DNA from: Anaerospora hongkongensis
GTDB lineage: Bacteria > Bacillota > Negativicutes > Sporomusales > DSM-15969
DNA length: 24,000 bases
NCBI RefSeq assembly: GCF_004339805.1
Contig: NZ_SLUI01000007.1
Coordinates: 57,061 to 81,060 of the forward strand
Reading direction: 5' to 3'
Shown: piece after piece, positions 10,708 through 19,285 of the stretch
Layout of the letters: every line of letters starts with the position of its first letter
Numbering within the stretch: the first letter of the stretch is position 1
Notes under the pieces: generated by a model
What the model saw: the letters and a program-made list of their open reading frames with translations, nothing else
What the model was told of the DNA's origin: nothing
Databases searched by the model: none
Made by a program: the position numbers and the translations under genes

Positions 10708-10740
10708 AGAAACCCTAGCCATGTGGCTAGGGTTTCTATT
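10708..10740 (+). terminator. stem-loop terminator after the hypothetical gene
   Basis: AGAAACCCTAGCC pairs with GGCTAGGGTTTCT in a near-perfect palindrome. The T-tail (TCTATT) is weak. Confidence 0.55.
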
Positions 10741-10983
10741 AGTACGTGTAATTGATTAAGCCTATATGAGGCTTGTATTAATTGAAAGGATATTGTAATA
10801 TAAATACGTCGAAACATACTATGTTTACAGGAGATGGCTACCCTGTACTGATGATGACAGGCTTATTATCAATCAAAAATCTTATTAAGGTTCTTGGTGA
10901 GGGAGCGTGGTGCTATATCAATATTAATTTCTTTGTTCACTCATTAAACCATTTTTCGCTCTACTTTAGTTTTTTAGCCATCT

Positions 10984-11036
10984 CGCCTTATAGGCCAAGC
11001 CTACTGATGAGTCCGTGTAAGTCGGACGAAAAGGGT
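10984..11036 (+). ncRNA. candidate type III hammerhead self-cleaving ribozyme
   Basis: Read 5' to 3': CCUU (10986-10989, stem III 5' strand), A10990 (H17, predicted cleavage after it), UAGGC-CAA-GCCUA (10991-11003, stem I hairpin), CUGAUGA (11004-11010), GUCCG-UGUAAGU-CGGAC (11011-11027, stem II with the G10.1-C11.1 pair), GAA (11028-11030) and AAGG (11031-11034, stem III 3' strand with the A15.1-U16.1 pair). Every invariant core position matches. Confidence 0.65.
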
Positions 11037-11068
11037 AAAAGACATCCGATGCTGGATGTCTTTTTTAT
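11037..11068 (+). terminator. rho-independent terminator immediately 3' of the hammerhead motif
   Basis: AAAAGACATCC (11037-11047), loop GATGCT, GGATGTCTTTT (11054-11064), with the T-run continuing to 11066. Confidence 0.75.
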
Positions 11069-11229
11069 TATATCAATCATTACCTTTAGCGTATGATTTT
11101 CCTCTATGCTTCTCGACGTAACAACACAGGAAGATGGCACTTTTTAGCGAAACATAAAGATATTGGTATATATCTTTTAGAGATGAATTTGCTTATCTGA
11201 TGTTAATTTGCATTCGGAGGGTGACTTTT

Positions 11230-14200
11230 TTGAAATCTAACTTTTCTTTTTTAGAAGGACGATGGCCGCTTCTTGCTTCTATTGGGATGATGGCTGAACG
11301 ATATATCCATACCGACTCAAATTCCTGCTTTATCAAGCTGGGGTTATTTGCCGAGTCTATGGTACGGTTGATCTTTACATTAGATCAGATCGAAGAACCG
11401 CAGGTCGATAATACGCATGCCAACCGGATTAGAATTCTCAAAAATGAAGGACTTCTTCCGAAAGATATTGATGATATTCTCTATGTGCTCAGACAGACGC
11501 GCAATAAAGCGGCCCATGATGGCTACGAATCAACTGAACAGGCCATGCTCTTAGTTCAGTTTGCCTATAAGCTTGGCGGCTGGTTCATGCAGACCTATGG
11601 AGACTGGAATTATGAGCCAGTAGCTTTTGTAAAACCTCATGCTATTGCGAATGACCTTGCTCTCAGTTCTGACAGCAAGCAGCAAGAAGAGCGCATCAAA
11701 GAACTCACCACGCAGATCAAGCAAGATGTTGCTGCTCTGCAGCCTATACCGCTTGCTGAACGACGAAAACAAAGCATTTCGTCAGCAGAAAAAATCAATC
11801 TTTCCGAAAAAGAAACCCGTTATCTCATCGACGAACAGCTCAGGCAAGTTGGCTGGGAAGCCGATTCCCTTCATATTCGCTACTCTAAGGGCATAAGACC
11901 ACAACGCGGCAAAAATCTGGCTATCGCTGAATGGCCGACCGATTCAATGGTAGGCGGTAGAGGTTTTGTCGACTATGCGCTATTTGTTGGAACTCAATTG
12001 GTTGGTGTTGTTGAGGCCAAGCGTCATTTGACAGACGTCCCAGCCGTGATTGATTATCAATGCAAAGAGTATGCCCAAAAGATAAAAGCCGAGCATGCCG
12101 GGTATCGCATCCATCAATGGGGCGACTATCAGGTCCCGTTTCTCTTTGCCACCAATGGACGCAAGTATTTAAAACAGCTGGAAACAAAATCGGGTATTTG
12201 GTTTTTGGATGCCCGTAAACCCACTAATCTTGCTAAAGCGCTGCAAGGCTGGCCAAGTCCGCAGGGCTTGCTTGAACTCTTGGCACAGGATATAGATAAA
12301 GCCAATCAGGTATTGGCCAATACCAGCTATGATCTGTTGAGCGATAAGGATGGCTTGAACTTACGGGATTATCAAATAAAAGCCATTCAGTCGGCTGAGC
12401 AAGCCGTAGCCGAAGGTAAGCAGACTGTGTTATTGTCAATGGCCACCGGGACAGGGAAAACCCGGACGATTTTAGGTCTGATCTATCGCTTAATCAAAAC
12501 TAGCCGTTTTAAACGAGTGCTATTTCTGGTTGATCGCACCGCGTTAGGGGAACAGGCTCAGGATGTCTTTAAGGAAGTCAAATTGGAAGACTTAATGACC
12601 CTAGATGAAATTTATAATATTAAAGGGTTGGAAGATAAGGAGATTGACAAAGAAACCAAAATCCACGTCGCCACAGTTCAGAGTCTTGTCAAAAGAATCC
12701 TGTATGCTGATGGTGAAAGCATGCCCGCTGTTACTGACTATGATTTGATTGTGATTGATGAAGCTCACCGGGGCTACATCCTGGACAAAGAAATGGGCGA
12801 AGAGGAACTGTTGTATCGGAATCAAGAGGATTATGTCAGTAAATACCGGACAGTCATTGAATATTTTGATGCTGTAAAAATAGCGCTTACCGCAACTCCG
12901 GCCCTCCATACCACAGAAATTTTCGGCACTCCTGTTTTTAACTATACCTATCGTGAAGCCGTCATTGAAGGCTATTTGGTTGATCATGATGCCCCCCATA
13001 CCCTGAAAACCAAGCTGGCCATGGAAGGCATTCGTTATTGCAAAGGTGATATTGTTGCCTTATATGATCCGGTTACTGGAGAAATTACCAACAGTCATGA
13101 ACTGGAAGACGAACTGAATTTTGATATTGAAAGTTTTAACCGGAAAGTTATTACCGAATCATTTAATAAAACGGTGTTAGAGGAAATTGCCAAATATATC
13201 AACCCGGACGGTCAGGGCAAAACTTTAATTTTTGCCGTGGATGATGCTCATGCCGATCTGATTGTCAAACTTCTGAAAGTAATCTATCAGGAATATGGCG
13301 TAGATCGGGATGCCATTATGAAAATCACCGGTTCGGTGGCTGGCGGCAACAAGAAGAAAGTACTGGAAGCCATTAAAAAGTTTAAAAATGAGAAATATCC
13401 CAATCTTGTTGTTACCGTTGACTTGCTGACAACTGGAATTGACGTTCCTGAAATATCCACCCTGGTGTTTATGCGCCGGGTAAAGTCAAGAATTCTGTTT
13501 GAACAGATGTTAGGCCGGGCAACCCGCCTATGTTCCGATATTGATAAGACACACTTTGAAATCTTTGACCCGGTAGGTGTGTACGAATCCTTAGAACCGT
13601 TAAGTACCATGAAGCCGGTAGTGGCCAATAAAGGTGCTACCTTTGCCGATCTGATCAACGGGCTGGAAGTGCTGGAAACCGAAGCCCAAAAGAAAAATCA
13701 GCTTGACCTGATTATCGCTAAGCTGCAGCGAGCCAAACGAAAAGTCAACAGCCAGCTGCTGGAACATTTTATTGACTTATCAGGCGGGCAAAATCCAGCC
13801 CAATTTATTGAAACCCTGCAAACGCTGACCATCGAGAAGGCTCAAGACCATATCCTGGAGCATAAACGCCTGTTCGAACTTCTGAATGAAGGTGGCTATC
13901 ATCCGGGAAGAGCGACAGTTGTATCCTTTAAGGAAGACGAACTGCTCTATCATACCAGAGGCTATGGCAATGCCCAAAAACCGCAAGACTATTTGGAAGA
14001 ATTCAAACGTTTTGTTGAAGACAATAAAGATAAAATTGCTGCGTTGAATATTGTCTGCACCAGACCCAAAGAGCTTACACGCGAGACTTTAAAAAGTCTA
14101 AAACTGGAGCTTGACCGTAATCGATTTACTGAGGTTCAACTCAATTCAGCCTGGAGAGAGATCCGGAATGAAGAGATTACGGCTGATATTATTACCTTTA

Positions 14201-14487
14201 TTCGTCGGCTAACGCTGGGCTCACCCTTGATTAGCCACGAACAGCGAATCAAAAATGCTGTGAATAAGCTTAAGCAGAATCATCGCTTTAGTAAAATGGA
14301 GCTGGACTGGCTGGGACGGATTGAAAAGCATCTTTTGCATGAAAGCATTCTGGCGGTCGACACCTTTGAAACCGGCGCATTCAAATCAAAGGGCGGGTAC
14401 AAAGTTATCAATAAAGTTTTTAGCAATAAATTGGAAGAAATTATCGCAGAACTTAATGATTATCTATATGACGATTGGAGCGCATAA
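11230..14487 (+). CDS. hsdR: type I restriction endonuclease R subunit (HsdR) with an N-terminal DUF4145-like domain and an EcoEI-R-type C-terminal region
   Basis: Walker A MATGTGKT, DEAH box VIDEAHRG, helicase motif VI-like QMLGRATR and an HSDR_N-type region (ETRYLIDEQLRQVGW) are present. The N-terminal ~130 aa (FSFLEGRWP...RNKAAHD) resemble DUF4145. The likely start is TTG 11230 (MKSNFSFLE), 8 nt after the RBS GGAGGG. The track start at 11200 has no RBS. Confidence 0.9.
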   Translation: MKSNFSFLEGRWPLLASIGMMAERYIHTDSNSCFIKLGLFAESMVRLIFTLDQIEEPQVDNTHANRIRILKNEGLLPKDIDDILYVLRQTRNKAAHDGYESTEQAMLLVQFAYKLGGWFMQTYGDWNYEPVAFVKPHAIANDLALSSDSKQQEERIKELTTQIKQDVAALQPIPLAERRKQSISSAEKINLSEKETRYLIDEQLRQVGWEADSLHIRYSKGIRPQRGKNLAIAEWPTDSMVGGRGFVDYALFVGTQLVGVVEAKRHLTDVPAVIDYQCKEYAQKIKAEHAGYRIHQWGDYQVPFLFATNGRKYLKQLETKSGIWFLDARKPTNLAKALQGWPSPQGLLELLAQDIDKANQVLANTSYDLLSDKDGLNLRDYQIKAIQSAEQAVAEGKQTVLLSMATGTGKTRTILGLIYRLIKTSRFKRVLFLVDRTALGEQAQDVFKEVKLEDLMTLDEIYNIKGLEDKEIDKETKIHVATVQSLVKRILYADGESMPAVTDYDLIVIDEAHRGYILDKEMGEEELLYRNQEDYVSKYRTVIEYFDAVKIALTATPALHTTEIFGTPVFNYTYREAVIEGYLVDHDAPHTLKTKLAMEGIRYCKGDIVALYDPVTGEITNSHELEDELNFDIESFNRKVITESFNKTVLEEIAKYINPDGQGKTLIFAVDDAHADLIVKLLKVIYQEYGVDRDAIMKITGSVAGGNKKKVLEAIKKFKNEKYPNLVVTVDLLTTGIDVPEISTLVFMRRVKSRILFEQMLGRATRLCSDIDKTHFEIFDPVGVYESLEPLSTMKPVVANKGATFADLINGLEVLETEAQKKNQLDLIIAKLQRAKRKVNSQLLEHFIDLSGGQNPAQFIETLQTLTIEKAQDHILEHKRLFELLNEGGYHPGRATVVSFKEDELLYHTRGYGNAQKPQDYLEEFKRFVEDNKDKIAALNIVCTRPKELTRETLKSLKLELDRNRFTEVQLNSAWREIRNEEITADIITFIRRLTLGSPLISHEQRIKNAVNKLKQNHRFSKMELDWLGRIEKHLLHESILAVDTFETGAFKSKGGYKVINKVFSNKLEEIIAELNDYLYDDWSA

Positions 14488-17414: not shown

Positions 17415-17465
17415 CCGTAAAAGGTATGTGGGGGATAATTTTAGGGAATTGGTAGAAGAGGATTG

Positions 17466-18350
17466 ATGCACATGTCAGGCAAATTAATTCGCTTATTCTT
17501 AACTGATGGTCAGCCCAATGGGTTGCGGACAGTTGAAATTTCCAATATGACCATTCATGGAACGATTTTTCCCCGGACGCAATTAGAGGGTTTTATGAAG
17601 CGGGAGGCGGCTAATAAACCGGGGGTGTATATGCTCATTGGTCAGGACGAGCAGGATCTGGAAACTATTGCTTTATACATTGGACAAGGCGACCCGGTGT
17701 TGCCACGGTTACGGGATCATGCCCGGAACAAGGAGTTTTGGACCGAGGCTATCGTTTTTTCTTCGAAAGATGATTATCTAACCAAAACCCAGGTTAAATA
17801 TCTGGAGGCAGACTTGTATGCCCTAGCGAAGGAAGCATATAGGGCCAAACTGGATAATACGCAAGCACCGACCAGGCCGAACATCTCGGAAGTGGATAAA
17901 GCCGAAGTCAATCAGTTCCTAGAGGCCATTAAACTGCTGCTATTGGCACTAGGCCGAGATATTTTAGAACCAAGGATCTTAACCGAAGCAAATACGGGCG
18001 TATCGGAAACCATATTTGAGTTGAAAAATAAGAATGCCTTTGCCCGTATGGCAGTTATCAATAATAAGTATGTGGTGCTCAAAGGCTCTACCGCTGTCCG
18101 CGAAAATCGGCGTTCTATAGCCCCGTTCCTGGTTAAACTTCGTCAAGATCTGGTGGATACTGGTATTATGGTTGAGACTGATGAAGAACTTTATACATTT
18201 ATGCAGGATGCCACCTTTAATAGCCCAAGTTACGCAGCAGCGGCAATCGTGGGCGGTGCTGCCAATGGGCGGAGATTATGGAAGTACAACGGTAAGGCAT
18301 TAAGAGAGTGGGATAATGAAATAGTAGATATCTGTGAAGATGACGATTAA
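17466..18350 (+). CDS. GIY-YIG nuclease-like protein with a C-terminal DUF4357-like domain, co-oriented fourth gene of the R-M operon
   Basis: GIY-YIG elements are present: GVYML, LYIGQG, RLRDH and YLEADL (Glu). The C-terminal FNSPSYAAAAIVGGAANGRRLWK matches my recollection of DUF4357. Start candidates are ATG 17466 or 17472, after the RBS GAAGAGGA. The gene begins ~50 nt after hsdS with no terminator between them. Confidence 0.8.
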   Translation: MHMSGKLIRLFLTDGQPNGLRTVEISNMTIHGTIFPRTQLEGFMKREAANKPGVYMLIGQDEQDLETIALYIGQGDPVLPRLRDHARNKEFWTEAIVFSSKDDYLTKTQVKYLEADLYALAKEAYRAKLDNTQAPTRPNISEVDKAEVNQFLEAIKLLLLALGRDILEPRILTEANTGVSETIFELKNKNAFARMAVINNKYVVLKGSTAVRENRRSIAPFLVKLRQDLVDTGIMVETDEELYTFMQDATFNSPSYAAAAIVGGAANGRRLWKYNGKALREWDNEIVDICEDDD

Positions 18351-18955: not shown

Positions 18956-19075
18956 TTACTCCATCTCTTCCCGTTTCCGAATCCCATGCTTATACAGCAC
19001 AAACTCCTCAATCAAAGCAATTTCCTTTTTGACTTCCTCGGGCAGGTTATATTTCTCATTATCTTCGCGAATGAC
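18956..19075. repeat. right-hand copy of the ~120-bp direct repeat (partner at 18452-18570)
   Basis: See the pseudogene entry. Similarity stops abruptly at ~18570/19075 and at the stop codon TTA (18452-18454 / 18956-18958). Confidence 0.75.
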
Positions 19076-19285
19076 TGGTACAGGTTTGGCTTCCGTGAAA
19101 AATTCAGCCAGAGAGATGTCCAGGGCCTGGCAGACTTTTTCCAGAGTTGTAACGTTAGGATTTTTTTTACCGATTTCAATATCCCGCAATGTAGCCTGGC
19201 CGATTCCGGCAAGCTGAGCGAGCTTGTTGGTTGAGTAATTCTTTTCTGTCCGCAACTGAATAATGCGTTTGGCAGTATTCATCAT
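18956..19285 (-). CDS. XRE-family helix-turn-helix transcriptional regulator (109 aa) with a charged C-terminal tail
   Basis: An HTH_3 pattern is present (YSTNKLAQLAGIGQATLRDIEIGKKNPNVTTLEKVCQALDISLAEFF). A GGAGG RBS lies 7 nt upstream of the ATG at 19285. A possible -10 TATAAT on the minus strand sits at 19319..19314. The + strand ORFs 18941..19234 and 19029..19217 are antisense shadows. Confidence 0.88.
   Translation of the reverse strand: MMNTAKRIIQLRTEKNYSTNKLAQLAGIGQATLRDIEIGKKNPNVTTLEKVCQALDISLAEFFTEAKPVPVIREDNEKYNLPEEVKKEIALIEEFVLYKHGIRKREEME

Follow-up and report, generated by a model that had tools for sequence, protein, structure and literature searches.

A hammerhead ribozyme had been predicted at positions 10986 to 11034 of a 24,000-nucleotide stretch of the Anaerospora hongkongensis genome (contig NZ_SLUI01000007.1; the whole stretch is called the window below), in a supposedly non-coding gap upstream of a type I restriction-modification (R-M) operon. 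We find that this type III hammerhead is very probably the 3' part of a small autonomous gene that spans about 10773-11068 and in which a promoter, a type II hammerhead, a 165-nt insert, the type III hammerhead and a terminator follow one another. The type II hammerhead, overlooked in the original prediction, lies about 130-160 nt 5' of the type III on the same strand, and the gap, described as non-coding, holds this second ribozyme together with a conserved open frame. What had been read as a ribozyme lying upstream of hsdR is thus better read as a mini-gene with two ribozymes, complete in itself. The pair of type II followed by type III hammerhead recurs in six further lineages, seven in all, among Bacillota isolates and metagenome-assembled genomes (MAGs) and in metagenomes.

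Two hammerheads on one strand

The elements of the type III hammerhead and of the terminator behind it are as follows.

10986-11034, forward strand: type III hammerhead, predicted cut between A10990 and U10991; Rfam match, fold and covariation
10986-10989 with 11031-11034, forward strand: stem III, CCUU with AAGG, 4 bp, an open helix
10990, forward strand: position H17, an A
10991-11003, forward strand: stem I, UAGGC/GCCUA, a 5-bp hairpin with loop CAA
11004-11010, forward strand: core CUGAUGA
11011-11027, forward strand: stem II, GUCCG/CGGAC, a 5-bp hairpin
11028-11030, forward strand: core GAA
11037-11068, forward strand: intrinsic terminator closing the cassette, a 12-pair hairpin (11037-11064) and then a U run

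Read directly, the core is complete, with CUGANGA, GAA, the A15.1-U16.1 and G10.1-C11.1 pairs and an H17 that is not G, and stems, core and cut site are all as originally described. The minimum-energy fold of 10984-11070 (-29.4 kcal/mol, z -4.0) was equalled by none of 200 shuffles; it contains stems I and II and the terminator hairpin, with stem III shifted one base from the hammerhead register. The Rfam Hammerhead_3 model gives the site 34.1 bits (E 1.8e-5 over 701 nt, 2.8e-5 over the 4.6-Mb genome) and matches nowhere else in that genome. This score is below the Rfam gathering cut-off of 48.5, as is that of the best homologue, L102, at 43.5 bits, and at gathering scores nothing in the window passes an Rfam scan. 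The original prediction had named such a search as a check on the motif: the sole genome match and its E-value speak for it, while the score leaves it borderline. A match to the Rfam Phe_leader model (33.6 bits, 10938-11068) was discarded, being produced by the terminator and U-rich sequence.

The homologues are decisive. Across nine related sequences, 92.5% of the cells in paired columns are paired, compared with 25-48% when the partners are slid; compensatory changes occur at 11 of the 15 pairs, and none of 500 shuffles did as well. Stems I-III all covary and the core columns are unchanged with the sole exception of free position 7, the pattern for which the original prediction had suggested looking. 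Because of this pairing and these compensatory changes, the type III hammerhead is confirmed, by comparison of sequences, as genuine despite its borderline single-sequence score. The initial judgement that it exceeds chance likewise holds, on the fold, the unique genome match and the compensatory changes alike.

The second ribozyme comprises the following elements.

10808-10858, forward strand: type II hammerhead, predicted cut between U10825 and U10826; Rfam match at 10807-10866
10808-10810 with 10856-10858, forward strand: stem II, GUC with GAC, 3 bp
10811-10813, forward strand: core GAA
10814-10817 with 10821-10824, forward strand: stem III, a 4-bp hairpin
10825, forward strand: position H17, a U
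10826-10831 with 10842-10847, forward strand: stem I, a 6-bp hairpin with a 10-nt loop
10848-10854, forward strand: core CUGAUGA, followed by one extra U at 10855

Its topology is that of the type II class, with stem II open, stems I and III closed and the core conserved. In a permissive scan the Rfam Hammerhead_II model scores it at 27.0 bits, under the cut-off of 37; this is the genome's best match (E 0.0049), and the copy in L101 exceeds the cut-off at 40.1 bits. Again the homologues are informative: 94.4% of cells are paired across 11 related sequences, against 27-47% with partners slid, and 10 of the 13 pairs show compensatory changes. Folded alone, the region has ordinary stability (z -0.77), and energy alone is therefore insufficient to reveal this hammerhead. 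An extra U between A9 and G10.1 is seen in every type II member collected, the search patterns having demanded that U. Stem II is short, as is reported to be common among natural hammerheads, where stems II of two bp occur (PMC3088659). In contigs of three of four other DNA runs that cover the unit, an extra U before G10808, read from loose contig ends, would extend it from 3 to 5 bp. One other sequence fitting the type II search pattern (L100) was taken as a chance match, since it has no upstream GAAA or stem III.

Covariation thus backs all six stems of the two hammerheads, and we have high confidence that both predicted ribozymes are real. By core, topology and covariation they belong to known classes, though under the Rfam cut-offs.

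Layout of the cassette and its open frame

Promoter, released RNA and the features within it are placed as follows.

10773-10801, forward strand: putative sigma-A promoter, assigned by eye, with -35 TTGTAT (10773-10778), a 17-nt spacer and -10 TAATAT (10796-10801)
10826-10990, forward strand: RNA that both predicted cuts would release, 165 nt or 55 codons, with predicted 5'-OH and 2',3'-cyclic phosphate ends
10831-10840, forward strand: 5' arm of a predicted long-range helix, spanning the type II loop I and the top of stem I
10975-10984, forward strand: 3' arm of that helix, ending one base before type III stem III
10899-10905, forward strand: Shine-Dalgarno-like GAGGGAG, internal to the released RNA
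10917-10919, forward strand: AUC at the start position, where homologues have AUG, GUG or UUG

The predicted transcription start, at about G10808, is the first base of the type II hammerhead. A consensus promoter scan of the window found no promoter at 10773-10801. In every lineage, however, a -35/-10 pair recognizable by eye ends 6-8 nt before type II stem II, and in some homologues it is near consensus (TTGAAA-17-TATAAT in L083, TTTGCA-17-TATAAT in L104). At the other end, four lineages have a terminator directly behind the type III hammerhead. A hairpin (AAGACA...UGUCUUUUUU) similar to that of the window follows it in L104, L112 and L116, and a different terminator in L102. Since it recurs in this position, we regard the terminator as part of the cassette. 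The original prediction had joined the hammerhead to a terminator that cleavage would sever, and this arrangement is now seen again in L102, the L104 group and L112. With a promoter at the first ribozyme and a terminator after the second, the transcript would consist of the two ribozymes and the insert only.

The two ends of the insert are complementary. Positions 10831-10840 pair perfectly with 10975-10984 over 10 nt, in a duplex of -17.9 kcal/mol that none of 500 shuffles reached, and in the minimum-energy fold of the released RNA this is the closing helix, with overhangs of 5 and 6 nt beyond it. When the whole insert was searched for the strongest pairing with loop I, each of the six cassettes tested gave a partner in the last 30 nt or so (-13 to -22.5 kcal/mol). 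When eight cassettes are aligned, 88.8% of the helix cells are paired against 35-62% with partners slid, three of the ten pairs show compensatory changes, and RNAalifold predicts the helix unprompted while finding no other conserved structure in the insert. The core of the helix, UGGCU with AGCCA, is the pseudoknot pairing of the type II family, with its partner moved here to a site about 130 nt downstream; the local option for a loop-I pseudoknot is merely a 4-bp GGCU/GGCU pairing with two G-U pairs. A conserved helix is thus predicted to bring both cut ends together.

Homologous pairs were recovered by pattern scans and by a search with the translated frame. The order is the same in all lineages (promoter, type II, an insert of 165-189 nt, type III), and the excised parts are 57-86% identical among the seven. 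Rfam detects both ribozymes in L083, L101, L102, L104, L112 and L116, and the type III alone in L106. The search patterns fixed certain bases (GAUGGCU, CUGAUGAUG and type III stem II), and the conservation of these is therefore partly built in. The excised parts compare as follows.

Window: 165 nt, stop-free frame
L104 (metagenome contig), L116 (IMG/VR contig) and L112 (Paenibacillus monticola): 174 nt, stop-free frame
L106 (metagenome contig): 177 nt, stop-free frame
L102 (metagenome contig): 180 nt, stop-free frame
L101 (metagenome contig): 189 nt, stop-free frame
L083 (Bacillota MAG; ribozymes at 32.1 and 35.0 bits in Rfam): 182 nt, no stop-free frame; an early stop, with the conserved C-terminal motif still read in another frame

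Closer to the window copy, positions 10808-11065 or more are covered, with 1.6-1.9% differences, by contigs from four further DNA runs, of which two bear the labels of other organisms and two that of soil metagenome; flanking coding sequence in these runs differs by 9-15% in most pieces. The 459-nt gap is single-copy in the genome, and a DNA similarity search with it found no match in 60 relatives, a phage collection or a plasmid collection. Nor was the pattern of type III stem I plus core met in the viral contigs scanned, and among 401 sampled Paenibacillaceae genomes the type II pattern was present in three, adding no new lineage. Viral contigs also hold hammerheads whose stem II is the same; these are type I and were set aside as unrelated.

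Two further observations concern these ribozymes. In the Paenibacillaceae cassettes L104 and L112 the heptamer UCUGUAC is found at the cut site of the type II hammerhead and again immediately 3' of the type III (for example at L112 5995-6010 and 6225-6235). In Acidobacteriota MAGs (L094 3892-3975, minus strand; L078 5847-5904; L091 5934-5991) there are type III hammerheads with the window's stem I (UAGGC/GCCUA) and stem II, with no type II partner detected in these three; in L094 the 5' strand of type III stem III is supplied by the U tail of a terminator that precedes it.

In the window, the frame of the released RNA with codons from 10827 is free of stops, while the other two hold four and five, and it would continue in frame if the ends 10990 and 10826 were joined. 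In six of the seven lineages the excised length is a multiple of three and exactly one frame is stop-free, the others having 1-9 stops; in these six lineages the intact frame runs across the 3' cut and stays open over the would-be end junction. Dinucleotide shuffles of the variable part left the frame open in just 2-14% of trials per lineage. As a comparison, solitary type II hammerheads of the same subfamily stand upstream of ordinary phage genes, and there the same frame stops after 10-25 codons in four out of five. A Shine-Dalgarno-like GGAG and the start position lie in the stop-free frame in all seven lineages. Stops can be found immediately beyond the cuts: L106 has in-frame UAG and UAA just before the 5' cut, with the UAA split by the cut, and L102 has an in-frame UAA 5 nt past the 3' cut. 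Translations of the frame are hydrophobic, with grand averages of hydropathy of 0.68-1.61, and many non-synonymous changes among the three Paenibacillaceae variants swap one hydrophobic residue for another. Selection has probably kept the frame open, to judge from these comparisons, and the peptide sequence itself appears only loosely constrained.

An ordinary protein gene was also considered, in the form of a 104-residue open reading frame (ORF) that spans the cassette (10782-11096). It has no Pfam match, its limits are not conserved, the stops of L106 and L102 fall directly outside the cuts and its conserved 'residues' are ribozyme bases, and it was rejected. When a profile of the frame translation was run against 1.84 billion proteins, the sole additions were false positives with ankyrin repeats. 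Separately, a type II hammerhead of the same subfamily stands alone in one phage contig (L098 786-1085); a small gene follows it directly and in frame, and the start region of that gene has the GGAGCGUGG motif also seen inside cassettes.

A proposed trimmed message without a stop, and other readings

Taken as a whole, the explanation that we place first, while stopping a little short of calling it probable, is an autonomous twin-hammerhead cassette, separate from hsd, that makes a non-stop, toxin-like mini-mRNA. More tentatively, the released RNA may be a linear, ribozyme-trimmed message for a small hydrophobic peptide resembling type I toxins. Transcription would begin at the first ribozyme and stop just past the second. 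Both ribozymes, given their conserved cores and covarying stems, would cleave themselves, removing the terminator and a leader some 18 nt long. By hammerhead chemistry the product, the 165-nt RNA 10826-10990, should carry a 5'-OH and a 2',3'-cyclic phosphate, and the helix of about 10 bp (10831-10840 with 10975-10984) would keep these ends together. With its internal Shine-Dalgarno sequence the RNA would serve as a mini-mRNA whose frame selection keeps open. The 5' ribozyme would strip the triphosphate end and the 3' ribozyme would cut within the frame, before any stop codon, so that the trimmed message is linear and lacks a stop. Ribosomes would then reach the end of the message and be rescued by trans-translation, the peptide being tagged for degradation, and how long the RNA lasts would depend on its closing helix and unusual ends. 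The ribozyme pair may thus act as a built-in brake, with active peptide made only when processing or ribosome rescue fails.

Several points weigh against this. A cassette that yields only a degradation-bound message would be an odd design, and the end-joining helix and in-frame junction fit a ligated circle better. Both window ribozymes score under the curated Rfam cut-offs, and the window copy has AUC in place of a canonical start. In L083 the frame is broken by 1 nt and soon meets a stop. Common ancestry links the seven homologous lineages, and the properties of the frame are not fully independent among them; one close pair keeps the frame open by chance in 33% of simulations. Finally, substitutions in the open frames of L104, L116 and L112 are nearly all non-synonymous, with 3 synonymous against 18 in one pair, and hence no purifying selection at the amino-acid level is seen beyond the exchange of hydrophobic for hydrophobic residues.

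This last observation would suit a structured non-coding RNA of 165 nt, whose exact ends the ribozymes set and which its helix closes; it would serve as a decoy or sponge or team up with an island protein, and the frame would be incidental. The helix and the ribozyme-derived bases are indeed the best conserved parts, the middle of the insert falling to 57-69% identity, and neither an excess of synonymous changes nor, in the window copy, a canonical start is present. We consider this unlikely nevertheless. A stop-free frame in AT-rich sequence in six of seven lineages is hard to explain without translation, length changes come only in multiples of three, and the Shine-Dalgarno sequence and start always share a frame; moreover, no conserved insert structure is predicted beyond the closing helix, and the loci have no protein partner in common.

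The alternative product is a circle. Ligation of the ends would give a 165-nt RNA of 55 codons without a stop, translated round and round from its internal Shine-Dalgarno sequence into a repetitive, hydrophobic and toxic membrane polypeptide that arrests the cell, an RNA-only counterpart of the 'nearly endless ORF' of DRT2. An RNA-repair ligase might be supplied by a phage, making the cassette an abortive-infection trap. Much of the layout is as a circle would have it: the length is a multiple of three and the junction codon sense and in frame in six of seven lineages, in-frame stops lie immediately outside the cuts (L106, L102), the conserved helix pairs the ends, and promoter with ribozyme and ribozyme with terminator abut, so that the sole product of the transcript has ligatable ends. 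Several copies adjoin restriction or defence genes, and circular products have been raised as possible for clustered hammerheads, none being detected (Perreault et al. 2011, PMC3088659). We nonetheless rate the endless circle as improbable, a shade more so than the non-coding RNA. Searches of five genomes that carry the cassette detected no RtcB, and the present genome, 99.98% complete, yielded no member of the Rnl-type or 2'-5' ligase families; a search for PNKP-ligase was uninformative, giving no match here or in 14 control genomes. Self-ligation is impossible in that the two ribozymes differ and their junction cannot rebuild a hammerhead, and a chimeric hammerhead at the junction was rejected since the GAAA-bearing strands depart with the discarded flanks. 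Given a continuous frame linking conserved end bases, the matching phase of the cuts amounts to a single one-in-three coincidence, and L083 is out of frame. Because no RtcB was found in the five host genomes, we favour a linear RNA over the circle, and the released RNA probably stays linear.

Genomic setting and relation to known systems

The window insert consists of the cassette, hsdR, hsdM and hsdS, and a DUF4357 gene. Synteny with a genome of the same genus (G001) extends to 10740 and resumes at about 18446; between these points that genome carries a different insert of about 10 kb without hammerheads (L022 8405-18446), for which reason we see the site as a hot spot for variable islands. 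The left edge of the island coincides with the terminator (10708-10740) of an upstream DUF2939-like gene.

The hammerhead had first been associated with the R-M operon, and a single hammerhead and terminator might control or insulate transcription into it. The motif does lie upstream of hsdR on the same strand, and contigs from several related DNA runs, as well as L061, hold the unit and the hsdR leader together; in L061 hsdR is 90% identical and the type III hammerhead is identical (the contig begins at 10961). Yet two hsdR homologues of 85% identity have no ribozymes: L063 shares the sequence from the terminator onward and has no hammerhead, and L062 has neither hammerhead nor terminator, its homology starting at 11123, with the shared hsdR leader. 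The terminator, besides, stands between cassette and hsdR, and in five other lineages the cassette occurs without any R-M genes. Because close hsdR homologues differ upstream and the cassette adjoins unrelated genes elsewhere, no link with control of the hsd operon is supported by these comparisons, and we consider such control very unlikely. The distance to hsdR, originally put at about 195 nt, also needs revision, as the gene most likely starts at TTG 11229, with the Shine-Dalgarno sequence GGAGGG at 11216-11221, rather than at ATG 11200; close HsdR homologues have 1085 residues and their called genes open at the equivalent TTG. HsdR (11229-14487) has an N-terminal DUF4145 domain, and the hsd operon is followed by the DUF4357 gene (17463-18350) and a divergent helix-turn-helix regulator (18956-19285).

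A chance match or a relic inactive in this genome is hardly credible: both Rfam scores are under their gathering cut-offs, the type II stem II has just 3 bp and there is no canonical start codon, but two hammerhead matches neighbour each other on one strand of a 4.6-Mb genome, the unit is only 1.6-1.9% different from contigs of four other runs, the stems covary strongly and even a 2-bp stem II is reported to be common in nature (PMC3088659).

Elsewhere the cassette has varied neighbours. In L083 these are TniQ, a Schlafen/AlbA_2 protein and McrB; in L106 a GmrSD C-terminal domain; in L102/L109 a serine-recombinase island with DUF4062; in the L104 group bacA; and in L112 a dinB/lexA region. No protein partner is common to the cassette loci compared. 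In three lineages transfer RNA genes lie 200-300 nt from the cassette (L101 5676-5758, L102 282-352, L104 354-425), which suggests that it sits at the edge of elements integrated at such genes. The window holds no phage genes; the L116 copy is on an IMG/VR contig and other copies are in recombinase or Tn7-like islands. Judged by these settings, the cassette is a separate portable or mobile module, often but not always found in variable or defence islands.

Type I hammerheads were met in other settings. Two overlapping IMG/VR phage contigs (L029 1892-6178, L047 7999-10304) carry four to five near-identical copies on one strand, about 0.5-2 kb apart. In Nitrosotalea/Nitrosopumilaceae MAGs (L064, L067, L076, L080, L081, L084, L086-L088, L093) a conserved type I hammerhead directly precedes a Shine-Dalgarno sequence and ATG.

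How the cassette relates to systems already described can be set out at several levels. Its type III member has the full core, three helices, open stem III, cut after H17 and stem covariation of the class (RF00008), and differs in its 4-bp stem III, its minimal stem I (5 bp and 3 nt), its score under the cut-off and its place at the 3' end of a reading frame, directly before a terminator. The type II member resembles those with a loop-I pseudoknot (RF02276; PMC3088659) in that UGGCU in its loop I is able, like the family consensus, to pair with a partner of AGCCA type; it differs in the extra U after CUGAUGA and in having its strong loop-I partner about 130 nt downstream, by the second ribozyme, and not directly after stem II. 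As a pair, they recall the hammerhead clusters flanking prophage genes described in 2011, for which circular or spliced products were suggested and not detected (Perreault et al., PMC3088659). In both cases two types on one strand bracket a coding unit, implying a single-gene RNA, but the unit here has only 55-63 codons and comes with a promoter and a terminator of its own, its 3' cut lies within the frame and ahead of any stop, a helix joins the ends, and the window is without phage genes.

With respect to its proposed product, the cassette can be compared with the mRNAs of type I toxin-antitoxin systems such as hok. These are short, structured messages for small hydrophobic peptides, in which pairing of 5' and 3' regions and processing of the ends gate translation, and their toxin genes are frequently found in mobile DNA. 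The cassette may share with them a short ORF for a hydrophobic peptide, led by a Shine-Dalgarno sequence, although the AUC of the window copy and the lack of a synonymous excess weaken the likeness; it would differ in its proposed control by cis-acting ribozymes and its trimmed message without a stop codon. Retrozymes, viroid-like RNAs and the engineered Tornado design likewise have flanking ribozymes that give 5'-OH and cyclic-phosphate ends held by a stem. The cassette is like them in its predicted ends, brought together by base pairing, and unlike them in its two dissimilar ribozymes; moreover, no RtcB was found in five hosts. With the DRT2 'nearly endless ORF' it has in common a stop-free unit whose length is a multiple of three (six of seven lineages), but, unlike DRT2, no reverse transcriptase domain is found among the neighbours in the window, L083, L101, L102 or L106. 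In the literature we found no description of a stand-alone cassette in which type II and type III hammerheads enclose a mini-ORF lacking a stop and a helix closes the ends.

To our knowledge the roles of bacterial hammerheads are still largely unknown, despite the thousands catalogued. Here is a stand-alone gene of about 300 bp seemingly built solely to release one small RNA with ribozyme-made ends, the frame of which is kept open exactly between the cut sites, and it offers a compact, testable case for hammerhead function. The paired-ribozyme design could be borrowed for RNA engineering. If the favoured linear message is what the cassette makes, ribozymes in cis would be the 'antitoxin', removing the stop codon of a toxin-like peptide, and this would be a new mode of toxin control; if instead the RNA is circular, bacteria would have their first natural example of a circular mRNA with an endless ORF. 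Under either reading, its recurrence in variable and defence islands makes the cassette a candidate accessory defence or addiction module.

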